DNA from: Minisyncoccota bacterium | GTDB taxonomy: Bacteria; Patescibacteriota; Minisyncoccia; Phycocordibacterales; DATDWN01 | NCBI GenBank assembly: GCA_036517395.1 | Contig: DATDWN010000010.1 | Coordinates: 33,922 to 97,921 of the forward strand | Length of the DNA: 64,000 nucleotides | Direction: 5' to 3' | Shown: piece after piece, positions 5,466-59,190 of the stretch | How positions within the stretch are numbered: position 1 is the stretch's first letter | How the letters are laid out: every line of letters starts with the position of its first letter | Program-made: the position numbers and the translations under genes | The notes under the pieces: generated by a model | Seen by the model: the letters and a program-made list of their open reading frames with translations, nothing else | The model's database searches: none | Told to the model about the DNA's origin: nothing

Positions 5466-5529
5466 CAGTTTTCAAATTTCAAAACAGTTTTCATTTTTTA
5501 TCGTATATGCTATTCTACGGGCAGATGTT

Positions 5530-5900
5530 CTAGCCCCAACTAACCAAAGTCAGCCCACCGAAGGAGGTGATTGCCGTGGGTGGACATGTGCGCGGTGAAC
5601 TCGCTGAGACTGCAGCCGCTCTATTGCGACTAAGTCTCACTGACTCGACAGTGGTGATCAAGGCGTTCATTGAGGATGGGTACTTCCACCTCGAGGAACT
5701 CCAGGGTCGCGCGACCTGCAACCCCCTGCAGGTGAACAGTCTGGCGCAACGAATCGATAGGGCTGAAAGTCTTCTCGTGACCAAGGCCAAACAGAAAGCG
5801 GGGTTGCTCGCTCGGCGGGAGGTGAGTCGATGAGGTGTCGTTGGGGAGAGTGCTCGTGTTTGCGTGGCCTAGGTCACAAAAGCACGAGCACTTTTCCATT
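5530..5900. other. GC-rich (about 58% GC) 370-nt segment without a consistent ORF; candidate structured RNA or foreign non-coding leader. Ends in a hairpin agtgctcgtg...cacgagcact followed by TTTT.
   Basis: Sharp compositional jump. Overlapping short ORFs on both strands. Terminal stem-loop at about 5850..5897. Confidence 0.3.
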
Positions 5901-5941
5901 TATAGTGACAACATGTCTAATTGTATAAGTCAATATTTCAT

Positions 5942-5970
5942 TTGACATAAACAATAGAGTGTGATAGAAT
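5942..5970 (+). promoter_or_regulatory. Sigma-70-type promoter TTGACA-17-TAGAAT
   Basis: Exact -35 hexamer with 17-bp spacer. SD AGGAGAAGG at 6033..6040 precedes the ATG at 6042. Confidence 0.5.
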
Positions 5971-6041
5971 ATTCAACAGATTGCGAAATACGGCTCATTT
6001 CATGGAGAAATGGGGTATTTCGCGAGTTTTTAGGAGAAGGT

Positions 6042-6938
6042 ATGAAAACACTCCGGTTCGTCGTAGTTTTTCTGATCGCGATTCTCATCTCGGTTTCGTC
6101 GACGTTCGCGCAGTCGGTTCCGACGGCGCCCACGGGGACGTCGCAGCCGGGCATCATTTCGCCAGTTGCGATGGACATCATCTCGATCAAGCCGACGGGG
6201 ATTCAGGGACGTGTCCAGGATTACTGGGGCAACCCGATTCCCGGCGCGTCCCTCGTCGTGTCGATCGTGCGACCCGATGGACAGAGTGGACAGCCATTCG
6301 CCGACCATGCGACCGCCAAGAAATTCGGGCCGTGCGAGTCGGGCAAGACGACGGACTGCGTTCGGAAAGATGGGAACTACAGCATCCCGAACTCGTCTCT
6401 CCCACAGTCGGACAACAAGTACGACGCGTGGCGGACTATCGACCTACGTGGCGAGGCCAAGGGTTTTGTCCATCACCTGGCTAACCCTGTTCAGATCAGT
6501 CTGGACGGGACCTCAAACCAGCAGGTGCAGGCGGTCCAGATGTACGAGAGTGGCTTCGCGACCAGTCAGGCCTATGCCTGGCGGGTGAACGACCGCGTGA
6601 CGGCCGTCGGGTTCTGGATGCGCCAGAACTGGACGGAGACCGTCTCCGTCAACTTCACCTTCAGGGGCTCGGCATGGACAGCGGTTCAAGCCGAGTATGG
6701 TATGACTCCGGTCTATGCCGAGGTTGGTCAAGGACCCCAAGGCAATGGTGTCTGGGTGGAGAGATGGTTCTGGACGCCTCAGAGCCCGACAGCACAGTTC
6801 GGCGGATCGTTCTGCGGGACGATCCAGATCAGCTCGGCCTACGAGGTCGAGCAGGTCAAAGCAGACCTGAAGGAGGTCTGCGTCAAGCTACCCAACGTCG
6901 CCGTAACAGGCGGTGGGGGTGGTGGAGGCAAGGGGTAA
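6042..6938 (+). CDS. Secreted protein with carboxypeptidase-regulatory-like (Cna-B-like) domain and C-terminal poly-Gly tail; GC-rich (about 60% GC)
   Basis: Signal peptide MKTLRFVVVFLIAILISVSSTFAQS. GRVQDYWGNPIPGASLVV motif. Ends GGGGGGGKG. The start is moved to the internal Met that carries a Shine-Dalgarno site. Confidence 0.6.
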   Translation: MKTLRFVVVFLIAILISVSSTFAQSVPTAPTGTSQPGIISPVAMDIISIKPTGIQGRVQDYWGNPIPGASLVVSIVRPDGQSGQPFADHATAKKFGPCESGKTTDCVRKDGNYSIPNSSLPQSDNKYDAWRTIDLRGEAKGFVHHLANPVQISLDGTSNQQVQAVQMYESGFATSQAYAWRVNDRVTAVGFWMRQNWTETVSVNFTFRGSAWTAVQAEYGMTPVYAEVGQGPQGNGVWVERWFWTPQSPTAQFGGSFCGTIQISSAYEVEQVKADLKEVCVKLPNVAVTGGGGGGGKG

Positions 6939-7001
6939 AGTAAATCCCGTGCCATGCTCATTCAAAGGCCGGTCCATCGCGGATCGGCCTTTTGTCATGC
7001 A

Positions 7002-7137
7002 TGTCCGCACACCAACTCTGGCATTGTGTCTTCCGTTGCTAATGTTGATAATTTAAGCGACAAATGTCAGTTGGTCATTGTTTGATTACACTATAATTTT
7101 GACACAGATGCAACGATGCCAGAGTTGGTGTGCGGAT
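7002..7137. mobile_element. MITE-like element (family 1, CCAAC variant) with about 21-bp terminal inverted repeats tccgcacaccaactctggcat
   Basis: Left end tccgcacaccaactctggcat; right end atgccagagttggtgtgcgga. Non-coding interior. Confidence 0.75.
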
Positions 7138-7441: not shown

Positions 7442-8026
7442 ATGTCAGAAGAAAAATACATAGTACAGAAAAATAAAATCACCTCTTTCTACCAGAAGCA
7501 TCGGCGCATGCCTGGGTATAAAGAAATCATGGATATGGTTGGGTTCAAATCGAAGAACGCCGTTTACAAACTTATAAACAAGCTGGTGGAGGATGAAGTG
7601 GTGGACAAAGATTCCAAAGGCAGACTTACTCCGATAAAAATATTTGGAGCGATACCGCTTCTCGGTCTTGTCGAGGCTGGGTTTCCGACAAGCGTGGATG
7701 AAGATAGATCGGAATCACTGAGCATAGACGAGTATCTGGTTGGTGGGAGCAAACAAGGCTCAACATATTTGCTGGAGGTAAAGGGGGATTCGATGATAGA
7801 TGAAGGGATAAGAGAAGGTGATCTGGTTCTGGCCGAGAGGCGAGGCGATCCGAAAGACGGCGATATAGTTATAGCCGAGGTTGATGGTGGTTGGACTATG
7901 AAATATTTCAAAAAAAAGGGCGATTTGATTTACCTAAAACCGGCGAATAAAAATTACTCACCTATATATCCGCAGTATGACCTAAAAGTTGCGGCGATTG
8001 TTAAGGGGGTGATAAGGAAATATTGA
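7442..8026 (+). CDS. lexA: LexA repressor (S24 peptidase family)
   Basis: N-terminal wHTH. VEAG Ala-Gly cleavage site, GDSM serine and downstream Lys. 194 aa. Confidence 0.85.
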   Translation: MSEEKYIVQKNKITSFYQKHRRMPGYKEIMDMVGFKSKNAVYKLINKLVEDEVVDKDSKGRLTPIKIFGAIPLLGLVEAGFPTSVDEDRSESLSIDEYLVGGSKQGSTYLLEVKGDSMIDEGIREGDLVLAERRGDPKDGDIVIAEVDGGWTMKYFKKKGDLIYLKPANKNYSPIYPQYDLKVAAIVKGVIRKY

Positions 8027-21432: not shown

Positions 21433-21459
21433 TCCTTGGCGGTTAAACCGCCAAGGAAA
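21433..21459 (+). terminator. Hairpin tccttggcggtt-aa-accgccaagga after rpoD
   Basis: Perfect 12-bp stem. Confidence 0.6.
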
Positions 21460-21487
21460 AATTATTCTATATTTATTAATTTATTTC

Positions 21488-21523
21488 CCACTTAACTTTA
21501 GCGGCCGCTAAAGTTAAGTGGGT
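21488..21523. repeat. 36-bp perfect palindrome cccacttaactttagcggccgctaaagttaagtggg
   Basis: Perfect inverted repeat. A related copy lies at 59155..59190. Confidence 0.8.
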
Positions 21524-21566
21524 TGAACTTATTCTGTTTCTTTACTTTAGATTCTAAAAATCAGAC

Positions 21567-21596
21567 AAATTTACTACAGTATACTGTAGTAAATTT
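21567..21596. promoter_or_regulatory. 30-bp perfect palindrome aaatttactacagtatactgtagtaaattt abutting a consensus promoter (operator-like)
   Basis: Perfect dyad symmetry, 5 bp upstream of the -35 hexamer. Confidence 0.5.
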
Positions 21597-21600
21597 GTGC

Positions 21601-21629
21601 TTGACAGTGGTGGCTGTTTGTGCTATCAT
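21601..21629 (+). promoter_or_regulatory. Sigma-70-type promoter TTGACA-17-TATCAT
   Basis: Exact -35 hexamer with 17-bp spacer. Confidence 0.5.
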
Positions 21630-21688
21630 GGATGGCAGAAATCTGAGAGGTGGATGCCCGTCTCCAAGCCAAGAAAGGGCTAAAACTC

Positions 21689-22243
21689 ATGCGTTTCACA
21701 ATTCGTCTCGTCGTCGTTCTCGGCCTTTTCCTTGGCTCCGCCATCCCGGCGAGCGCACAGGGCAAGGTGTCTGGTTCAGTCGAGGTGCAGAACGTGTTGA
21801 GTGAGAGTGGGGTCGTCCCGCAACTCGACGCGTACGTGCACGGGCCACTCTCGGGCAAGATCGGCTGGACGGTTTGGATGCTCGTGTCGAAGTCGTGGAG
21901 TGAGGGGCTCTTCGGGGTCACCTACGCGCCGGCCAAGTGGATCGAGGTGTCCGCGAGCGCTGGGCTGGAAAGCAACAAGAGCCCGTTTCGCGGCGCCGCG
22001 AGTATCTGGATGGGGAGTGGCAAGTACTCCTTCGTCTCGCTCCATGAAAAGGGTGGGAGCGGACGCTGGATGAAGAACGTGGCGACGTATGAGGTCAACA
22101 AGACTCTCACCGTCGGCGTTCTCCAACAGTCGTTCGTTGGGGTCGGCCCCTACGCCGCGGTCAAGGTGGGACGTATGACCATCTGGGGTGCGTACGCCGT
22201 CGCTGACGATCGCGGTTTGCTCACCGCGAAGTTCACGTTCTGA
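21689..22243 (+). CDS. Secreted small beta-barrel (OMP-like) protein, paralog 1; GC-rich
   Basis: Signal peptide MRFTIRLVVVLGLFLGSAIPASAQG. Alternating amphipathic strands. C-terminal ...AKFTF (terminal Phe). The ORF start is trimmed to the Met that carries the signal peptide. Confidence 0.5.
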   Translation: MRFTIRLVVVLGLFLGSAIPASAQGKVSGSVEVQNVLSESGVVPQLDAYVHGPLSGKIGWTVWMLVSKSWSEGLFGVTYAPAKWIEVSASAGLESNKSPFRGAASIWMGSGKYSFVSLHEKGGSGRWMKNVATYEVNKTLTVGVLQQSFVGVGPYAAVKVGRMTIWGAYAVADDRGLLTAKFTF

Positions 22244-22364
22244 GGGAGTCTCGTGTTGGTGGAGTTTCCCGAAAGGGGACTCCACCGGCAGGAGGCAGAG
22301 GTCCAGAGTAGAATTGTCTACTTCTGGGCTTTTTTCGTACTAAAAATTTCACAAATTTTTGAGG

Positions 22365-22393
22365 TTGACAGGGGCGTTTACTTAGTATATAAT
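22365..22393 (+). promoter_or_regulatory. Sigma-70 consensus promoter TTGACA-17-TATAAT
   Basis: Exact consensus hexamers with 17-bp spacer. SD GGAGGG precedes the ATG at 22444. Confidence 0.55.
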
Positions 22394-22443
22394 AAAAACA
22401 GAAAATCGAGAGGCAGAAACCCGTTTCTAAGGCCGGAGGGCAC

Positions 22444-22995
22444 ATGAAAATAAGCGTCGTTGCCGTTCTACTTGCGCTCGTCGCAGGGACGGCGCAAGCG
22501 CAAGAGCCTGAGGCAAAGATCTCGGGGTTCGTTGAGTCGTACAATCAAATTGTGCGGGGAGAGAAACTCAACTCCTCACTCAACCTGTACATCGAGGGGC
22601 CTATCAAGGGCAGGCTCGGCTGGGCCACTGTGCTCTGGGTCCAGAAGGATTGGACCGAGTGGATGGGCGGTTTCACGGTGACTCCTGCACCGTGGATCGA
22701 GTTCATCGCTGTCCTTGGCGGCGAGACCGACGATCGGCCGCTTCGCGGATCCGGAATCCTCTGGCTCTCGAAGGCGGGTCTGACCCTCGAGGCTGAGTAC
22801 GAAGCTGGTGGAAGTGGAACTTGGTACAGGGCGAACGCCAAGTACAAAGTCCATTTCCTCTCGCTCGGCGTCAACTCGGTTGCCGACGTCGGCACCGGAC
22901 CCTACCTCGAGCTTGGCCTGGGCAAGTGGGATCTCTGGGGGTCCTACGTTGTCAAAGCCCACGGCGGAGTTTTTGGACTTCGTCGCAACTTCTGA
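22444..22995 (+). CDS. Secreted small beta-barrel (OMP-like) protein, paralog 2; GC-rich
   Basis: Signal peptide MKISVVAVLLALVAGTAQA. Alignable to paralog 1 (GRLGWATVLWVQKDW vs GKIGWTVWMLVSKSW). C-terminal ...RRNF. Confidence 0.5.
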   Translation: MKISVVAVLLALVAGTAQAQEPEAKISGFVESYNQIVRGEKLNSSLNLYIEGPIKGRLGWATVLWVQKDWTEWMGGFTVTPAPWIEFIAVLGGETDDRPLRGSGILWLSKAGLTLEAEYEAGGSGTWYRANAKYKVHFLSLGVNSVADVGTGPYLELGLGKWDLWGSYVVKAHGGVFGLRRNF

Positions 22996-23131
22996 CTTCT
23001 GTAATGTCTCAGTCGTCCGAGTTGACTCGCGAGGGTGGAACCTGATTTCAGGGTTCCACCATCGCGAGTTTTTTGATACAAGGAATTTGTAATTTATGAT
23101 ACTATTGATGCAGAACTGATTTGGAGGGACC

Positions 23132-23305
23132 ATGGACCAGCCAATTGAGGAGGCGGGAACGGAGAGACTCTGTCCTTATTGCCACAGCTGGAAAGTGGCT
23201 CCTTTCATAGGAGATTACTACCGCTGTGCCAATGAAGGATGTTATAGACTGATTGAAAAAGATGAACTGCTGGTTCGCAAGGTGAACCAGCCCGAGGGAG
23301 AGTGA
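23132..23305 (+). CDS. Small zinc-ribbon protein (57 aa); GC-rich
   Basis: CPYC...CANEGC. SD GGAGGG at 23123. Below the 60-aa cutoff of the ORF track, so translated by hand. Confidence 0.35.
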   Translation: MDQPIEEAGTERLCPYCHSWKVAPFIGDYYRCANEGCYRLIEKDELLVRKVNQPEGE

Positions 23306-23306
23306 C

Positions 23307-23759
23307 ATGGATGCTACTGATCTCATCCGGCCAGTCAACTTGTTCGAGCAAGATTTCAGCCGTGCAACCGAGGCCGAACGCGAACAAGTGGTGGCACTCT
23401 TACGGGTTTTCATGGCGAGGTTGCGTATCATTCTACGTGGGTGTGAACCCATGGTGAGAAAGGTCACCCCGCAGAACGAAGAGCGTTGCGCGACGTGCGC
23501 TTTCAACCCAGTGACGGACTCTCTCCCAGGGTTTGCTCTCACTGCCTATGGGGTTCTCCAGTGCATCTACAACGACCAGAAGGCTTTTCTCTGCCATGGT
23601 GAAAATCCTGACTGGGAGGATCAGCACCTGATCGACCCCGCGAACCCTATCCTGTGCAACGGCTTCCTTGCAGTTCGGCTCTACGCCGGCATCAGTGCGG
23701 CCCTTCTCGCTATCCGTACGATGAAGGCTATTAGGAAGGTTGTTCCAAAAAGTCCGTAA
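23307..23759 (+). CDS. Hypothetical protein (150 aa); GC-rich
   Basis: Start abuts the zinc-ribbon stop (TGAcATG). Followed by hairpin cgtagaa..ttctacg at 23791..23818. Confidence 0.4.
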   Translation: MDATDLIRPVNLFEQDFSRATEAEREQVVALLRVFMARLRIILRGCEPMVRKVTPQNEERCATCAFNPVTDSLPGFALTAYGVLQCIYNDQKAFLCHGENPDWEDQHLIDPANPILCNGFLAVRLYAGISAALLAIRTMKAIRKVVPKSP

Positions 23760-23833
23760 ATGCGGACAAGAAAGGTGTCCGACCAGCCTCACGTAGAATT
23801 GCCTCGGCCCTTCTACGCGGGGCTTTTCTACTA

Positions 23834-23972
23834 CATCCGCACACCAACTTTGCTCTCATTGCATCCAGTCTCAAAATCTAGATGCACATCTAAGATTTAG
23901 ATATGATTTCCAACTTTTGCTTTAGTCTATATGTAGCAATAGGGAGACAAGAGCAAAGTTGGTGTGCGGATA
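23834..23972. mobile_element. MITE-like element family 1 (CCAAC variant; inverse orientation relative to the 45390 copy)
   Basis: Ends catccgcacaccaactttgctct / agagcaaagttggtgtgcggata. Interior shares gcatccagtctcaaaatctagatgcacatc with the 47607 copy. Confidence 0.8.
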
Positions 23973-24106
23973 CATCCGCACACCAACTTTGCCATCGTCC
24001 TGCTTTTTCAAAAAACTTACTCCTGCTTTATAATTTTTGTTGTAATTTGCTTAAAGTACACCTTAAATCAGGACATAAAAAGTAATGGCAGGGTTGGTGT
24101 TCGGAT
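23973..24106. mobile_element. Degenerate MITE-like element family 1, in tandem with the previous copy
   Basis: Intact left end catccgcacaccaactttgcc. Degenerate right end gggttggtgttcggata. Unrelated interior. Confidence 0.55.
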
Positions 24107-30779: not shown

Positions 30780-31210
30780 GTCGCAACCGCGTAGTTTACT
30801 CTGGAGGCCTAATGAGCGTCGTGTTGAAGGATCTCGAAAGGGCTAGTGGCAGGTTCGGTTTGCTTTTTCGGCGGGGGATGGGGCGAATGTGCCTCAGTTT
30901 CCAAGAGGTGGCAAACCGGTCGCGACTCGACAAGAGGTTAGTTGTCGAGGTTGCGGAAGGGCGGGCACACACCATCCGTCACGCCGAGGTGAGACGGATC
31001 ATGGACGTGGCTCTGCCGAAAGACATCGGTAGGATGAGGTCGGAGGCGTTTCATCTCCTCCTCATCTTCACGCCACGTCCACGTCCACGGTTTGTGCGGC
31101 GCATTCACCCCTCCCGTCGGTTTGCGCCTCAGAGGCGCAACTAGTTCCCGCCCAAAGCTTCGAAAAGGCCCCTCACATGCGATTGCAGCATGTGAGGGGC
31201 TCTCCGCTTA
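30780..31210. other. GC-rich (about 58% GC) 430-nt non-coding segment; candidate structured RNA. Ends with strong hairpin cccctcacatgc-gattgca-gcatgtgagggg
   Basis: The only ORF (30812..31144) is Arg-rich and not protein-like. The terminal 12-bp hairpin lies between the convergent truB and typA genes. Confidence 0.3.
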
Positions 31211-31212
31211 AA

Positions 31213-33048
31213 TTATTTTCTGGTCACTTTCTTTCTTAGTCTGACAGATTTCGGAGTAATCTCTATAAACTCGTCATCGGACATCACTTCCATAGCTTTC
31301 TCAATATCCAGTTTATAGGTAGCGGCGAGGTAAACGCTGTCATCTGATCCGGCCGCTCTCATGTTTGTCAGTTGTTTGCCTTTTGTTGGATTTACAAACA
31401 AGTCGTCGCCCTTTGAAACATTGCCTATGACTTGACCAACGTAGACTTCCACTCCTGGGTCAACATACAAAGTCCCTCTCTGTTGCAAGTTATCCAATGC
31501 AAAAGCCAAGACCTTGCCTTTTTCCATTGAAACCATCGAGCCGTAACTCGTCTTTTTTATTTCACCGACAAATTCTCTAAATTCTATAAATCGCGAAGAG
31601 AGAATGCCGTTGCCTTTTGTATCTACTATAAACTGCCCACGATAACCCAGAAGTCCGCGCGTCGGAATCTCAATTACAATTCTTTGATGCCCGTGTGTCT
31701 GCTTTACACTAGTTAAAATTCCACGTCTTTCTGTCAGTCGAGAAATAACAGAACCAGCCAATTCATCGGAGACATCCACAGTTACTTCTTCAAAAGGTTC
31801 CATTTTCACACCATTAACGTTTTCTTTTATAATAACGTGGGGCTGGGAAACCTGGAGTTCAAATCCTTCACGACGCATGTTTTCCAGAAGTATGGCGATG
31901 TGAAGCTCACCACGCCCGTATACAGTATAGCCTTGGATGGCCGGATTTTCATCATTCCACTCAATTTTCAACCCGACGTTTATTTCCAGCTCTTTTTCCA
32001 AGCGTTCACGAATTTGTCGTCCTGTGACAAACTTTCCTTCACGTCCGGCGAAGGGTGAGTCGTTTACCAAAAAGTTCATGGAAATAGTTGGTTCGTCAAT
32101 GTTTATAGATGGCAGGGTTTCCGCATCTTCGCTCTGGCAAATAGTGTCGCCAATATAAATAGTAGGAAGCCCCGCGATCATAACAATATCTCCCGCGGCG
32201 GCCATATCAGTTTCCACTCTTTTTGTACCTTCAAAGCTGAAAAGTTTTGTAAGTTTTCCCCTAAACTCAGGCTTTGCCTGAGTCGGGCGATCATCCGCTT
32301 CTGCGGATGATTTAGCCGAGATACCTTTTTTAACATATACAACATCGCCACTTTTTACGATGCCCTCGTAAACTCTACAGACAGCAAGTCTGCCGAGGAA
32401 GTTATCATATGCGAGGTTGAAAGATTGAAGTCGGGCTGGGAGATTTTTGTCTCCACTTGCTGCGGGCACTTCACGCAGTATTGTTTCAAGAAGGGGAGTT
32501 AAATCTTTTGATTCATCCGACAGTTTCATTTTGGCAATTCCGTCACGCCCGATAGCGTAAACAGTTGTAAAGTCCAGCTGTTCGTCGTTTGCGCCGAGCT
32601 CTAGGAAAAGCTCCAAAACAAGTTCATGCACTTCCTCTGGCCTTGCCGCTGCTTTGTCTATTTTATTTATTATGACGATAGGTTTCAATCCCAGTTCGAG
32701 AGATTTTTTCAAAACAAATCTAGTTTGTGGCATCGGCCCTTCCTGCGCATCGACGAGCAGAAGCACGGTGTCTATCGAACGTAGCACTCGCTCAACCTCG
32801 GAACCAAAGTCTGAGTGTCCAGGGGTATCAACAATATTTATTTTAGTAACTTCGCGACCTGAGTCTCTACTAGGGTAATACACTGATGTGTTTTTGGCGT
32901 ATATGGTAATGCCACGCTCGAGTTCGAGGGCGTTTGAGTCCATGGTGACACCCTCGGCAGTCATGCCTGTTTGGCGCATGAGAGCGTCGGTGAGAGTAGT
33001 CTTACCGTGATCAACGTGGGCTATGATTGCAATGTTTCGTATCTCCAT
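31213..33048 (-). CDS. typA: Translational GTPase TypA/BipA
   Basis: NIAIIAHVDHGKTTL G1 motif. PTISMNFLVNDSPFAGREGKFVTGRQIRERL and YGRGELHIAILLENMRREGFEL are diagnostic of BipA rather than LepA. Confidence 0.9.
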   Translation of the reverse strand: MEIRNIAIIAHVDHGKTTLTDALMRQTGMTAEGVTMDSNALELERGITIYAKNTSVYYPSRDSGREVTKINIVDTPGHSDFGSEVERVLRSIDTVLLLVDAQEGPMPQTRFVLKKSLELGLKPIVIINKIDKAAARPEEVHELVLELFLELGANDEQLDFTTVYAIGRDGIAKMKLSDESKDLTPLLETILREVPAASGDKNLPARLQSFNLAYDNFLGRLAVCRVYEGIVKSGDVVYVKKGISAKSSAEADDRPTQAKPEFRGKLTKLFSFEGTKRVETDMAAAGDIVMIAGLPTIYIGDTICQSEDAETLPSINIDEPTISMNFLVNDSPFAGREGKFVTGRQIRERLEKELEINVGLKIEWNDENPAIQGYTVYGRGELHIAILLENMRREGFELQVSQPHVIIKENVNGVKMEPFEEVTVDVSDELAGSVISRLTERRGILTSVKQTHGHQRIVIEIPTRGLLGYRGQFIVDTKGNGILSSRFIEFREFVGEIKKTSYGSMVSMEKGKVLAFALDNLQQRGTLYVDPGVEVYVGQVIGNVSKGDDLFVNPTKGKQLTNMRAAGSDDSVYLAATYKLDIEKAMEVMSDDEFIEITPKSVRLRKKVTRK

Positions 33049-33422
33049 TTGTTTGATTTGTATATTTGGCGCATTTCGTTGTTGGAAAGCAAAAAATTAT
33101 TCTCACCTGCGCACTCAGGCAGGCTCGAATCCTTTTTCACTTTCCGCCTAGAACTGCATCCAAATCTCCAAATCAAAGGATGCAATTCATTGAAAAACCG
33201 GCTACAGCCGGCGGTCAAGATTTAATTAAAGCATAATTTGTTTAATGATGCAAATTAGGCCTAATTATGGCTAATTTTAGGCCTTATTTTGGTACTTGAC
33301 ACGAGTATACTTGCGGTATACAATATAGGTAGATTCTTCGGGCTCCTCTCCCTACCCCTCAATACGAACTTCTGGAAAGTTAACTGTTCGGCCACGGGCC
33401 GACGCACACTGAGGTAGCAGCC

Positions 33423-33974
33423 ATGCCAACGTATTCGCAGATTCTGCCCTGGGCTCTGGCCTGGGCTCTGGCCTTCTTCGGTTTTCTCATTCTCTTTGGC
33501 ATCATCTTCCAGAAGAAGCACAAAAGTGACATCGACGCGCTGAAAGTCGACATCACGTTGTGGAAGACGAATTCGAAGGAGCTGTCCACGACGCTCGAGA
33601 ATATGAGGAGGGAGGTGAGTGACCTCACCCATGAACGTGACGACCTGAAGCAGTTCGTCAGCGCGTTCGTCTCGGACGAGCATGCCCTCGAGGTCATGGG
33701 TCTCGCCACGGCGCGTATGCACGAGGTCTGCCAGAAGGCCGTCGGCGATCACGGAAAATTTCCCACATACGACCTCGACCCCGACGAGTTTCAACGGCAG
33801 CTCCTCATGGTTGTATCCATCATGGCGTCGGAGGCGGAGGTCGTCGAACGTGCCGCCGATGACTGGCGATCTCTCATGTATCTCGCGATGCATGCGGGTT
33901 ATCCCACGAGGATCGACCCCACGACCCGGAGGGTGGTCATTGACCGCGAGAAGGAGGCGTCGAGCGCGGCGTAG
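33423..33974 (+). CDS. Hypothetical membrane/coiled-coil protein; GC-rich
   Basis: N-terminal TM helix, then a charged coiled-coil-like region. Chosen over the antisense 210-aa ORF. Hairpin terminator gggccgaac..gttcggccc at about 33998..34030. Confidence 0.4.
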   Translation: MPTYSQILPWALAWALAFFGFLILFGIIFQKKHKSDIDALKVDITLWKTNSKELSTTLENMRREVSDLTHERDDLKQFVSAFVSDEHALEVMGLATARMHEVCQKAVGDHGKFPTYDLDPDEFQRQLLMVVSIMASEAEVVERAADDWRSLMYLAMHAGYPTRIDPTTRRVVIDREKEASSAA

Positions 33975-34057
33975 TCGTCGTCGACAGCGTAGTTCTTTAA
34001 GGGCCGAACCGTATGTGTTCGGCCCTTTCGCTTATCTAAATATAATTTTAACCACTA

Positions 34058-34210
34058 AGCCCAATCTCGTCGAGGCAAAACCTTTTTGGAACATCGCGCA
34101 GGAGCTTAGAAAATTACAATTGTAACCAATTGATAATTTACTTGAGTTCCGAGCGTGAAGAAAAATTTCAACAGAAATTTATTCTGTTTCCAAAAAGGTT
34201 TTGGTGAGAA
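34058..34210. repeat. 155-bp MITE-like repeat family 2, copy R2, immediately upstream of the DedA-like gene
   Basis: Matches the reverse complement of R1. Termini caaaacctttttggaac ... gtttccaaaaaggtttt. Confidence 0.8.
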
Positions 34211-35858: not shown

Positions 35859-35993
35859 ATCCGCACACTAACCTTGGTATTGTCTCCCTGTTGTGACATA
35901 AAAAGTTAAACAAAAGTTAGAGATATATTTAAATTTGGGATGTATCTCCAGAATCTGAGACTGGAGGCAACGATACCAAAGTTAGTGTGCGGA
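35859..35993. mobile_element. MITE-like element family 1 (CTAAC variant)
   Basis: Ends atccgcacactaaccttggtattgtctccctgttg / caacgataccaaagttagtgtgcgga. Confidence 0.8.
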
Positions 35994-36007
35994 CATGTTT
36001 TTTATAT

Positions 36008-38654: not shown

Positions 38655-38736
38655 CAGATGATAGGAAGTTTTGTGTTTTTTCGTATACAAAATCCGCCTC
38701 CCTCGGATTTTGTACACTAGGGGGGCGGGTGGTTAG

Positions 38737-39453
38737 TCAGCCCCCAATAGTTTTCAAGAGGGCGTTGATTTTTCTCATCTGATCATTGGCACCAATGCTC
38801 TGTGCCATCAGAAGCGCCCGCAGAAGATAGGTGCGGGCCCTGTCATGGTCCTTCATCTCGGGTTTGAGAAACAACTCGCCGGCCTTGCGCAGGACCCGAG
38901 AGAACTGAGCCTTGGCCTGTAGTCGGTTTGGCTCCTGCCGGATTTCCTTGTCCATGGCTACCGCCGTCTCAACCAGGCTCATGATCTCGTTGCGGTTGAA
39001 GTCGGTAGCGTAGATGGTTTCAGCCAGGGTCATCCTGACCAAGGCTCTCTGATGGGCCTTCGCGCCATCTGTGGCTGCTAGAGCCACAGCCCTTCGGGCC
39101 AAGAAAAGCGGCCCCAGATCCTCTGACTGCTTCAGACGGGATGGCTGTCCCACAGTGATTCCTGGGATTCTTGCCCGCGCCTTGAGCAAGAACTGCACCA
39201 GAACATCGAGCTGGGTGTGGCTGCACTTCTTGTATTGTAACCAGAGAAATGTAGCGTGGATGGTGCCGAAGATGCAGAGTTGCACAGGGTGTTGTCGTGC
39301 CACGCTGATGTAGGCCGATAGCATGATGCTGTGGCCTTGGATGTACCGTCCCCAGTTCCTGCATTTTCGGGCGTCAGTTCGAGCCATGGCCAGGGCGTCT
39401 GGGTGGCCCTTCCACATGGCTTCCGCCGTGTTTGCCGGTTTTCTGGTTTCCAA
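38737..39453 (-). CDS. Hypothetical protein; GC-rich (about 57% GC)
   Basis: 238-aa ORF. Compositionally distinct island. Confidence 0.4.
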   Translation of the reverse strand: METRKPANTAEAMWKGHPDALAMARTDARKCRNWGRYIQGHSIMLSAYISVARQHPVQLCIFGTIHATFLWLQYKKCSHTQLDVLVQFLLKARARIPGITVGQPSRLKQSEDLGPLFLARRAVALAATDGAKAHQRALVRMTLAETIYATDFNRNEIMSLVETAVAMDKEIRQEPNRLQAKAQFSRVLRKAGELFLKPEMKDHDRARTYLLRALLMAQSIGANDQMRKINALLKTIGG

Positions 39454-39526
39454 GTATCCTCCTCTCCAGACGCGGTGTGCGTCTGATAATTTCCGAGTTC
39501 AGATTATCACGAGAGTTTAGTTTTGT

Positions 39527-42982: not shown

Positions 42983-43807
42983 ATGACAATGACAAAGCAG
43001 GCTCTGCTTCTGAGACTTGCCCAAGTTGTCTCCCTGGAACAGAGGGAACAGCTTCGGCAAACTTGGAACAGAAATGTTTCCAGCCCTGCCGCTTTCCTGC
43101 CACACGAGAGGGTGGGGAAAGTGAGCATAGAGGAAGCGGAAGCGAACAACAAGGACCTTGGGAATTTCAGCACCGGTTTTGTCCGGCGCTGTCTTGCCCA
43201 GTTCGCAACCACGCAAGGGAAGGTTCGGCGCGAGATTGAGAGGAAGAAAATCATCGCTGTCGGTTACGGCCGCGGCTATGATTCTCCGTGGATCTATGAA
43301 GCAGGACTGGCGGGGCTGGCCACTTGGTGGATTGATGTGTCGGATAAAGCTTTGGAATTGGCCTGGCCAGACATCGAGGCCCAGGTCTACGCTTCAGAAG
43401 CTCGTGGAGTTTCATGTCCATCCCCCGGCGTGAGGCTGGGAGAAATCCATACAGTTCTCTCAGACCCAAGCAGTATTGGTCTGGAAGATCTGTCCACCAT
43501 TTCGGCTTGGTACTTCGGTCGGACCCTCGGTTGTCTATACAAGTGGAGTGCTCCACTCGTTCTCCAGGAGGTGGGTCAAACCTTGAGTGAGGATGTGGAT
43601 CCCCTTAAGGAGAACCAGATTATTATTGTGCAGGGACTGCAGGATAATAATCAAGGCTATGTCAGCTGTACCAGCACTCTGCACCGTAGGACAATGATTC
43701 AACGAAATATAAGGAAAGGAGCTGGACGCTCTGTTGAGATCGCCCTTGAAGATACACACCCGTATTACGATAAAATCGTAACGGCGATGTGCTTCAAAGC
43801 GATCTAA
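42983..43807 (+). CDS. Hypothetical protein; GC-rich insert between two kinase genes
   Basis: 274-aa ORF at about 55% GC. IIAVGYGRGYD faintly resembles a Rossmann-like motif. Confidence 0.4.
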   Translation: MTMTKQALLLRLAQVVSLEQREQLRQTWNRNVSSPAAFLPHERVGKVSIEEAEANNKDLGNFSTGFVRRCLAQFATTQGKVRREIERKKIIAVGYGRGYDSPWIYEAGLAGLATWWIDVSDKALELAWPDIEAQVYASEARGVSCPSPGVRLGEIHTVLSDPSSIGLEDLSTISAWYFGRTLGCLYKWSAPLVLQEVGQTLSEDVDPLKENQIIIVQGLQDNNQGYVSCTSTLHRRTMIQRNIRKGAGRSVEIALEDTHPYYDKIVTAMCFKAI

Positions 43808-45389: not shown

Positions 45390-45527
45390 CATCCGCACAC
45401 TAACTTTACTCTTGTCTCCCTGTTGCTACATTAAGAGTCAAGCAAAAGTTAGGGATCATATCTGAGTTTAAGATGTACATCTAGATTTTGAGACTGGATG
45501 CAATGAGAGCAAAGTTAGTGTGCGGAT
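45390..45527. mobile_element. MITE-like element family 1 (CTAAC variant)
   Basis: catccgcacactaactttactcttgtctccctgttgc...gcaatgagagcaaagttagtgtgcggata. Ends 9 bp before the ATG of the 45537 gene. Confidence 0.8.
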
Positions 45528-47606: not shown

Positions 47607-47744
47607 CATCCGCACACTAACTTTGGTATGGTTGCATCCAGTCTCAAAATCTAGATGCACATCCCAATTTAGATACAATTTCTAACTTTTGCCTAACTCA
47701 ACATATGGCAACAGGGAGACAATACCAAAGTTAGTGTGCGGATA
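47607..47744. mobile_element. MITE-like element family 1 (inverse orientation)
   Basis: catccgcacactaactttggtat...ggcaacagggagacaataccaaagttagtgtgcggata. Ends 7 bp before the ATG of the 47752 gene. Confidence 0.8.
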
Positions 47745-58384: not shown

Positions 58385-59158
58385 TCAAATAATCACTTGT
58401 ATCAGGGTTTCTCCGTCCAAAACATAAATAAAACTAGGGTCGGTTTCTATGAAATGCGGGTCGGTGCCACGGAATATTGGTATGAAATTTTGGGTTCCGC
58501 TTTTGTCGGTTTCTATGACGAAGACAGAATTGCTCGTGGAGAAAATGATAGCGTCGGAGCGATCTTTATAAAAATAAATGTTTCTTATGGGTGTTTCTGA
58601 TTTTATTACTAAGGTCCCCCCTGGGTCTTTCCTAGGAGAATTTACCATGATTGCGTTGCTTCCAAGCCACAATGTTACTGAGCCGTCTTTGCTTGTACGA
58701 GGTGAATCTTTTGTGGGTGGTTTGTCTGCTGAGACTTGATTTCGCAGTTTCCAATATTCAGGATCGTTTTTTGTGATAATCTCACCTGAAACATTTTGAG
58801 TTACGAAAATAGGGAAGAGTGTCACGCTTCCCCCGCTCGACACAATAAAATCTTTTTTCCAAGGGAAGTATCCTTGACGAGAAACGATTATTGAATGTCT
58901 GGTTGGGGTCAGAGAAATTTTCACCACCTCATTGTCTTTTGTCGTTGTGATTTTTTGGTCGGTATCAACGAAAATATCAGTGTTTATTATTGGAATTTCA
59001 ATGGATACCGTGCCCAGTTTTCCTATTTTGAAATTATCCTCGATCCTGTATCCCATTTTGTAGCCAACAAAAACAGCAATCAAAATAATTGTTCCCGTTC
59101 CTGCAAAAACCCAATATTTTTTGTCCCTTCCCATATTTTTAGATTTATCATTATACAC
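58385..59158 (-). CDS. Hypothetical membrane-anchored protein
   Basis: N-terminal TM helix. 257 aa. Confidence 0.45.
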   Translation of the reverse strand: MYNDKSKNMGRDKKYWVFAGTGTIILIAVFVGYKMGYRIEDNFKIGKLGTVSIEIPIINTDIFVDTDQKITTTKDNEVVKISLTPTRHSIIVSRQGYFPWKKDFIVSSGGSVTLFPIFVTQNVSGEIITKNDPEYWKLRNQVSADKPPTKDSPRTSKDGSVTLWLGSNAIMVNSPRKDPGGTLVIKSETPIRNIYFYKDRSDAIIFSTSNSVFVIETDKSGTQNFIPIFRGTDPHFIETDPSFIYVLDGETLIQVII

Positions 59159-59190
59159 TTAACTTTAGCGGTCGCGAGAATTAAGTGTAT
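59155..59190. repeat. Imperfect palindrome acacttaactttagcggtcgcgagaattaagtgt, related to 21488..21523
   Basis: Shares cacttaactttagcgg.cgc and ttaagtg arms with the rpoD-downstream palindrome. Confidence 0.6.

Follow-up and report, generated by a model that had tools for sequence, protein, structure and literature searches.

A 64,000-nucleotide stretch of contig DATDWN010000010.1, the whole of which is called the window below, was found to carry two adjacent genes, A and B, whose products are predicted to be small, exported, 12-stranded β-barrels of the outer membrane protein (OMP) type. The probability that A and B are native, functional transmembrane barrels is put at about 85%. The family to which they belong is undescribed and, among its labelled members, has so far been seen only in Paceibacteria-type bacteria of the Candidate Phyla Radiation (CPR); the fold is a known one and the cellular setting is unexpected.

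Proteins A and B are deposited at NCBI as hypothetical proteins of a metagenome-assembled genome (MAG) labelled 'Candidatus Paceibacterota bacterium' (locus tags VJC13_01705 and VJC13_01710), and Candidatus Paceibacterota belongs to the CPR/Patescibacteria. In the literature, CPR/Patescibacteria are described as having no outer membrane (PMC10160955; bioRxiv 10.1101/2020.05.14.094862). A paper on envelope evolution treats the outer membrane as lost in Chloroflexi and CPR (PMC10160955), and cryo-transmission electron microscopy (cryo-TEM) of groundwater CPR, the hosts of which were Gram-negative, showed a periodic outer layer of 3.2–3.8 nm and no outer membrane (bioRxiv 10.1101/2020.05.14.094862). 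According to the latter work, CPR also lack de novo fatty acid synthesis and depend on host lipids. The NCBI label and this literature agree with an earlier note, made on the same DNA from its sequence, which had described the lineage as one regarded as having no classical outer membrane.

Transmembrane barrels that carry Phe as a C-terminal signal are considered characteristic of outer membranes and of the organelles descended from cells that had them. The surprise lies in their presence, as a large, conserved and, it seems, strongly expressed family, in a lineage modelled as having a single membrane and an S-layer.

Predicted fold of proteins A and B

AlphaFold2, run with family alignments as input, modelled each protein as a signal helix followed by 12 β-strands in up-and-down order, with pLDDT (predicted local distance difference test) values of 91.4 for A and 90.3 for B and a pTM (predicted template modelling score) of 0.78. 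The strands were 7–15 residues long and were joined at both rims by turns of 2–6 residues. Thus, structure prediction, which the earlier note had named as a check on its barrel proposal, returned a 12-stranded barrel-type fold at pLDDT 90–91 and no non-barrel fold for either protein.

Foldseek searches of PDB with both models matched almost only outer-membrane or designed transmembrane barrels, and no soluble barrel was among the top 50 matches of either model. The best superpositions were with 12-stranded structures, namely KdgM (template modelling (TM) score 0.57–0.63), VhGalP (0.59–0.63) and a designed 12-strand barrel (0.57–0.61); others of this strand number were the β-domains of invasin/intimin (0.56–0.59) and NanC (0.49–0.53). 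KdgM was the top match for A (E 1.3e-5, TM 0.58–0.63) and ranked fourth for B (TM 0.57/0.61). Structural matches in BFVD were mostly annotated OMP barrels or unnamed proteins. Carriage of the family by phages was considered and rejected, as no relative was found on the viral contigs of IMG/VR and the phage OMP-like barrels in BFVD were generic, with low TM scores.

Per-column analysis of 113 diverse relatives showed alternating hydropathy in 10 of the 12 strands. The hydrophobic strand face was variable (V/I/L/F), whereas the opposite face carried conserved Glu, Arg, Trp and Gly; in gene B numbering, the invariant or near-invariant residues were E31, E72, E94, R101, E120, W70, W107, W127, W165 and several Gly. 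A variable hydrophobic face combined with a conserved polar face is the pattern of a lipid-facing barrel, the reverse of that shown by a soluble protein. The C-terminus of the family took the form G-[LVI]-[RK]-[FLY]-x-F. The last residue was F in 76 of the 113 relatives, and almost always so in the closer ones; position −2 was F, L, Y or I in 69/113; and position −5 was G, A, T or S in 95/113, with G in 60. Judged from these residues, the motif resembles the β-signal of substrates of the β-barrel assembly machinery (BAM), GxxΩxΩ, where Ω is aromatic and the last residue usually Phe. The modelled fold, the Foldseek matches, the lipid-facing strand pattern and the β-signal-like end therefore agree with one another, and the claim of OMP-like barrels was upheld.

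Genes A and B and their export signals

The ORFs (open reading frames) of A and B were both intact. BLASTP aligned the two proteins over 170 residues with 34% identity (E 4e-33), in keeping with the earlier reading of the genes as tandem paralogues, and the conserved blocks quoted in support of it, GKIGWT/GRLGWA and KWIEV/PWIEF, were located in the translations together with the C-terminal Phe of each protein. A-type and B-type sequences constitute two subfamilies: A was 44–53% identical to most relatives in alignment A2, and B grouped with the relatives P0002, P0006, P0017, P0021, P0027 and P0030. Because A and B fall in separate subfamilies, the tandem pair is an old duplication, not a recent one. 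For gene A, a GTG start at 21650 proposed by extension in the ORF list was rejected, since the ATG at 21689 gives a canonical signal peptide and agrees with the 184-aa form called by NCBI (HEY4508980.1).

Signal peptides with n-, h- and c-regions and an AxA-type site were read by eye in both precursors. They were MRFTIRLVVVLGLFLGSAIPASA in A, followed by QG with cleavage between ASA and Q, and MKISVVAVLLALVAGTAQA in B, followed by QE with cleavage between AQA and Q, leaving mature proteins of ~160 residues (~17 kDa) as anticipated. Cleavage sites of the AQAQ type, also judged by eye, were common throughout the barrel family. In the window, only A and B combined a signal peptide with a terminal Phe. 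Both genes had been credited with strong Shine-Dalgarno sequences; this was true of B (GGAGGG, 3–4 nt before the ATG), whereas that of A (AAAGGG, ~10 nt upstream) is only moderate.

Size and distribution of the family

An exhaustive HMMER search of 1.84 billion cluster representatives (clusters at 50% identity) delimited a family of 574 clusters at E ≤ 1e-3, 291 of them at E ≤ 1e-10; the best 150 of the 574 relatives were mostly ~180 aa long. A and B matched no Pfam or NCBIfam model even at E ≤ 1, the 113 diverse relatives matched none of the OMP families in Pfam, KdgM included, and no PDB sequence matched the barrel-family profile. A follow-up homologue search with alignment A3 gave 7 proteins. 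Full-text literature searches retrieved no paper describing OMP-like barrels in CPR; their coverage was incomplete and an earlier description is possible.

All labelled members were from CPR, comprising Paceibacterota, Zambryskibacteria, Yanofskybacteria and MAGs labelled 'Saccharibacteria'. A scan of GTDB species genomes with the narrower alignment A4 detected 5 loci, again all in CPR and including two MAGs labelled Saccharibacteria, and at these loci the barrel gene stood alone among housekeeping genes such as gyrB and those for P-type ATPases. At two loci with distant members, L009 (7039-7809) and L020 (4951-5730), a gene for a TrmB-family regulator (PF01978) was located directly 5′ of the barrel gene, in divergent orientation. 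Sugar uptake is often under the control of TrmB regulators, and by analogy this neighbour hints at regulated, substrate-linked expression of the barrel in the L009 and L020 lineages.

Conservation of the locus

The window has a GC content of 41% and carries rpoB, rpoC, dnaG, rpoD, hisS, truB, bipA and a gene for a UvrD/PcrA-type helicase (uvrD). The arrangement dnaG-rpoD-A-B-zinc-ribbon gene-ORF150-uvrD was found with 100% nucleotide identity in independent assemblies from ENA and Logan, two of the contigs being 157 kb and 91 kb long, and the exact B protein was present on 16 contigs. A test for purifying selection on the near-identical contigs was dropped, because these had been retrieved by exact identity of protein B and synonymous-only differences within B were thereby guaranteed.

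Related genomes had a homologous cassette at the same site. At locus L001, the terminal part of an A-type gene was followed by a B-type gene (54% identical), a zinc-ribbon gene and the start of uvrD. Loci L002/L003 (GCA_041664695.1, Paceibacterota) showed rpoB-rpoC-dnaG-rpoD followed by genes for a 224-aa secreted protein, a B-type barrel (44%) and a zinc-ribbon protein, and then uvrD. The rpoC and rpoD genes of L002 were 88% identical to those of the window, whereas B was 44% identical and A was replaced; this indicates that the slot between rpoD and uvrD has been kept and that its contents turn over fast.

The protein encoded at the position of gene A in L002 (9177-9851) is unrelated to A; it has a GC content at third codon positions (GC3) of 0.81 and a signal peptide, looks β-rich and matched no family. 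From its sequence it may be a second kind of exported barrel. In L001, a near-identical copy (1 base different, at 277-301) of the rpoD terminator hairpin of the window (TCCTTGGCGGTTAAACCGCCAAGGA, 21433-21457) was observed shortly before the B promoter, in the interval that separates the A-type gene from the B-type gene. This shared terminator suggests local rearrangement of the cassette relative to rpoD.

Base composition of the island

The description of the locus as a GC-rich island was borne out. The GC content was 0.59–0.62 in A and B against 0.41 in the window, and GC3 was 0.80 in A, 0.70 in B and 0.62 in ORF150 against 0.39–0.42 in dnaG, rpoD, uvrD, rpoB and rpoC. The island spans ~21600-23800, with atypical composition and sharp boundaries; within it, the intergenic promoter regions had a GC content of 0.37–0.47, near the host value. 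It was neither absent from the same site in relatives nor assignable to a foreign donor, a homologous cassette being present in L001 and L002/L003, and its content varied, with A replaced in L002 and ORF150 unique to the genome of the window.

Close relatives of A and B also formed GC-rich islets in AT-rich genomes at every locus inspected (GC3 0.63–0.80 against a background of 0.39–0.51), and at L007 the islet coincided exactly with the barrel gene. In contrast, the distant members L009, L020 and L021 had a near-native, AT-rich composition (GC3 0.36–0.48). Since distant members are AT-rich, the family is at home in CPR, the GC bias marking one subclade. The simplest reading is that this GC-rich subclade spread laterally among CPR from a GC-richer source; biased gene conversion or selection at the mRNA level are the alternatives.

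Other GC-rich islets (at least 0.52 GC, with peaks of 0.56–0.63) were observed in the window at 5501-7100, 30801-31300, 33301-34100, 38701-39500 and 43001-43600, each covering one unannotated ORF. One of these ORFs encodes a secreted protein of 298 or 325 aa (from 6042 or 5961, respectively, to 6938) with a Gly run at its end, and two of the islets have a near-consensus promoter in front of them (at 5942 and 33296). Small GC-rich insertions are thus suggested to be a general feature of this genome.

Transcription signals and neighbouring features

The coordinates of the features identified between rpoD and uvrD are given in Table 1.

Table 1. Features of the window between rpoD and uvrD
Feature	Position	Strand	Description
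Perfect palindrome, 36 nt	21487..21522	.	arms 100% complementary, 0 nt apart
Perfect palindrome, 34 nt, AT-rich	21565..21598	.	adjoins the −35 box of A; arms 100% complementary, 0 nt apart
Promoter of A	21601..21629	+	TTGACA-17-TATCAT, 11/12 matches, extended −10 TG
Gene A	21689..22243	+	ATG start; 184-aa precursor, signal peptide, predicted 12-stranded β-barrel, C-terminus KFTF, A-type subfamily
Two stable hairpins after gene A	22248..22339	+	second hairpin (22297-22333) plus U-run reads as an intrinsic terminator
Promoter of B	22365..22393	+	TTGACA-17-TATAAT, 12/12 matches
Gene B	22444..22995	+	183-aa precursor, signal peptide, predicted 12-stranded β-barrel, C-terminus RRNF, B-type subfamily
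Intrinsic terminator after gene B	23018..23075	+	18-bp GC-rich stem, then TTTTTT
Promoter-like site before the zinc-ribbon/ORF150 pair	23073..23100	+	TTGATA-16-TATGAT, 10/12 matches
Zinc-ribbon protein, 57 aa	23132..23305	+	CxxC...CxxxxC, without signal peptide
ORF150, 150 aa	23307..23759	+	Cys-rich, cytoplasmic; starts one base past the zinc-ribbon stop
Terminator hairpin closing the island	23785..23824	+	fold −31.2 kcal/mol, z −4.3, then UUUUCU
Two tandem MITE-like repeats	23835..24106	.	~135 nt each, 19-nt inverted-repeat ends; between the island and the start of uvrD

The pattern TTGACA-N17-TATAAT with at most one mismatch occurred at 7 sites in the window, against 0.46 expected, and the promoter of B was its sole perfect match; both genes thus proved to stand behind consensus promoters, as had been stated. 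Every family gene inspected had its own promoter-like −35/−10 pair, and most had a Shine-Dalgarno sequence of the GGAGG type. The RNA downstream of gene A folded at −57.4 kcal/mol (z −7.75), and none of 200 shuffled sequences was equally stable. The terminator after B, formed by inverted repeat I6 (23025-23042 / 23052-23069), folded at −36.9 kcal/mol (z −5.4). With a promoter and a strong hairpin terminator of its own for each gene, A and B are two monocistronic units; the zinc-ribbon gene and ORF150, with their promoter-like site and closing terminator, make up a third unit.

Both palindromes are located in the interval from the rpoD terminator to the gene A promoter. The 34-nt palindrome is a candidate operator or UP-like element, and a half-site related to the palindromes, with 2 mismatches, was observed at 59154-59171. 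The Shine-Dalgarno-like motif GAGAGG was seen ~10–25 nt past the predicted transcription starts in the window (~21640-21655 and ~22405-22420) and in L001 (~340-356). The leader GAGAGG resembles the 5′ 'STAB-SD' elements, which stabilise mRNAs in Gram-positive bacteria, and may be such a stabiliser. A conserved 5′-leader hairpin (GAGAGG plus a CCCG loop), seen by eye in A, B and the B gene of L001, was dropped, the z-scores of the folds being only −0.5 and −0.7.

Homologues of the zinc-ribbon protein were encoded directly 3′ of the B-type gene in L001 (41% identity, E 8e-16) and L002 (37%, E 3e-4), and all its matches in Pfam and NCBIfam were sub-threshold. From the one-base spacing between them, the zinc-ribbon gene and ORF150 look translationally coupled. 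ORF150 matched no Pfam or NCBIfam family; it was absent at the syntenic loci L001 and L002 and is specific to the island version of this genome.

The repeats beyond the island, which resemble miniature inverted-repeat transposable elements (MITEs), were present in six copies in the window (7003-7137, 23835-23971, 23974-24106, 35859-35994, 45391-45527 and 47608-47743). Their 19-nt terminal inverted repeats read ATCCGCACAC(C/T)AACTTTG, and their interiors fall into two orientation classes. The pattern ATCCGCACACCAACTTTGC had 13 matches in the window against 0 expected, 12 of which pair into the six elements. One copy is located at the end of another GC-rich islet.

Pfam scans of the 20 largest previously unexamined ORFs of the window detected no outer-membrane machinery. 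An unusual domain combination, unrelated to the barrels, was observed at 404-2716, where a 770-aa protein has a Schlafen-group-3-like helicase domain and, fused to it at the C-terminus, an S24 (LexA-like) peptidase domain. Another gene, located near it (7442-8026), encodes an S24 peptidase by itself.

Proposed mechanism and alternative explanations

The proposed sequence of events is as follows. A and B would be transcribed at a high level from their near-consensus promoters, and the precursors would be exported through Sec and cleaved at the AxA site. The mature proteins are predicted to form 12-stranded antiparallel transmembrane barrels with the conserved polar and aromatic set facing inward. 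Such a minimal-loop barrel may insert, possibly spontaneously, into a lipid layer other than the energised cytoplasmic membrane, where it would act either as a structural pore or as a small passive channel of the porin type; its site of action would be the cell surface or the interface between symbiont and host. Unaided insertion is plausible in view of the minimal loops, a feature in common with designed barrels, which do not need BAM to fold. As a destination, the cytoplasmic membrane of the cell itself is unlikely, because an open barrel would collapse the membrane potential. We lean slightly toward the outer membrane of the Gram-negative host at the attachment site, a destination favoured by the fast turnover of the cassette, its lateral mobility and the minimal loops of its barrels. 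The mechanism as a whole, including a pore function outside the cell's own membrane, is considered probable, with distinctly less assurance than the barrel nature of A and B.

Several points weigh against this interpretation. Patescibacteria reportedly lack an outer membrane, and to enter that of a host the barrel would have to come from outside and pass through the lipopolysaccharide leaflet. High expression was deduced from promoter sequence alone, the signal peptides were judged by eye, and taxonomic labels cover very few of the 574 clusters. For barrel closure, pore radius and belt thickness, the basis was DSSP strings together with Foldseek scores, and TM scores of ~0.6 show fold class, not homology.

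The barrels could instead belong to an outer layer of the CPR cell itself, either an unrecognised lipid-containing layer or a protein lattice resembling a toga or S-layer; in that case they would serve the symbiont as pores and as major proteins of its own envelope and would not be directed at the host. Near-consensus promoters and surroundings of housekeeping genes are what abundant structural proteins would have, and the β-signal-like C-terminus suggests recognition by an assembly factor. The 'toga' of Thermotoga, an extended proteinaceous sheath, has an envelope model with β-barrel proteins (PMC10160955), and the 3.2–3.8 nm of the periodic cryo-TEM layer is near the estimated diameter of a 12-stranded barrel. 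However, the same cryo-TEM work reports the outer membrane to be absent from CPR cells, comparative studies treat it as lost, and a second lipid layer would be costly for cells without de novo fatty acid synthesis. The fast turnover of the cassette, with an identity of 44% for B against 88% for rpoD and rpoC and an unrelated gene in place of A in L002, would also be unusual for a core structural protein. We regard this explanation as unlikely on balance while giving it serious weight. An extension of it, in which Paceibacteria-type CPR still build, or have re-invented, an outer hydrophobic layer of minimal 12-stranded β-signal barrels without canonical BAM, the 3.2–3.8 nm 'S-layer' being the barrel lattice, is quite doubtful and is offered as speculation; if true, CPR would be a living intermediate in the diderm-to-monoderm transition. 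That A and B might be soluble exported β-barrels or sandwiches with the hydrophobic face inward, such as proteins that bind ligands or lipids in the cell-wall space, is improbable. Such a protein would make biological sense in bacteria that depend on host lipids, AlphaFold2 and Foldseek alone cannot tell which face points out, and in the family consensus both faces of strand 7 are hydrophobic. Known soluble barrels have 8–11 strands, however, and 12 strands would enclose a far larger hydrophobic cavity than theirs. The conservation pattern is the opposite of that of soluble proteins, the charged/Trp/Gly face being the conserved one, and both the terminal-Phe motif and the lack of soluble barrels among the top 50 PDB matches of either model argue against a soluble fold.

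Two further explanations concern the origin of the DNA and correspond to options that the earlier note had left open. Recent acquisition from a diderm (Gram-negative) donor, as passenger DNA without function in the present host, would account for the contrast in GC3 (0.70–0.80 against ~0.40 in the flanking genes). The island also has MITE-like repeats on one side, and the further GC-rich islets of the window point to frequent insertions of small size. However, the labelled relatives are all CPR, no diderm donor was found and no known OMP family was matched; moreover, the distant relatives at L009, L020 and L021 are AT-rich, and the same rpoD-uvrD slot is occupied in related genomes. Residues invariant across the family indicate constraint and, together with host-type promoters and intact terminators, argue for function. 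This option thus went unsupported, and we consider it very improbable. A foreign GC-rich fragment misjoined into a CPR contig has in its favour the sharp composition changes at ~21600 and ~23800 and nothing else. It is refuted by the identical arrangement in independent assemblies, with the exact B protein on 16 contigs, and by the position of the cassette between rpoD and uvrD in two related genomes, the right junction being conserved in the diverged L001 and both junctions in L002; the host-like GC content of the intergenic promoter regions inside the island is a further argument. A chimeric contig can therefore be given practically no credence. Of the three options in the earlier note, a genuinely novel envelope component fits the data best.

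Three outcomes can be envisaged for these native barrels: CPR cells may have an unrecognised outer hydrophobic layer, neither BAM nor an outer membrane may be needed for the assembly and use of OMP-type barrels, or an epibiont may export porins into the membrane of its host to tap nutrients. Each is relevant to the nutrition of CPR symbionts and to the debated transition from diderms to monoderms. With a mass of ~17 kDa, the mature proteins are small and concrete targets for refolding and testing.

Comparison with known barrel systems

BAM-dependent OMPs (OmpA, OmpX, OmpG and porins) share with the A/B family a Sec signal, an even number of amphipathic strands, a hydrophobic lipid-facing belt and a Phe-ending, β-signal-like C-terminus. 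They differ in having long surface loops, which are absent in A and B, and in coming from cells with an outer membrane and BamA, neither of which is known in the A/B lineage.

The KdgM/NanC porins (KdgM 4fqe/4pr7, VhGalP 8xua, NanC 2wjq) are likewise small monomeric 12-stranded up-and-down barrels of similar size, and their signal peptide and C-terminal aromatic residue are also present in the A/B family. Sequence identity is nevertheless at most 12% and the Pfam KdgM model was not matched at E ≤ 1, so that A and B share the fold of the KdgM family and not its sequence. The loops of A and B (2–6 residues) are far shorter. KdgM/NanC channels are basic and specific for acidic sugars, whereas the inward-facing conserved residues of A and B are mainly acidic, with four invariant or near-invariant Glu and one Arg. 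The organism of A and B also differs from the producers of KdgM/NanC in that no outer membrane is known for its lineage.

A conceptual precedent for a barrel that works in the membrane of another cell or organelle, relevant to an obligate epibiont, is provided by Bdellovibrio PopA, presented in its source as a porin acting in a foreign membrane (PMC12228718), and by chlamydial OmpA, presented as delivered to mitochondria (bioRxiv 10.1101/2025.06.02.657351). The likeness is one of analogy only: the producers are diderms in which the barrel is first assembled in their own outer membrane, whereas for a CPR cell no delivery route is known.

Designed transmembrane barrels (12-stranded 9fdg; TMB10_163, 8uzl) come close to A and B in architecture, being minimal, of comparable length and with 2-residue turns at both rims (TM 0.57–0.61). 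Such designed barrels fold into detergent or lipid without BAM, which indicates that minimal barrels can insert unaided. They are artificial and evolutionarily unrelated to A and B, whereas the A/B family has a conserved polar and aromatic interior that suggests a specific function. With its minimal-loop architecture, the family is a natural counterpart of designed nanopores.

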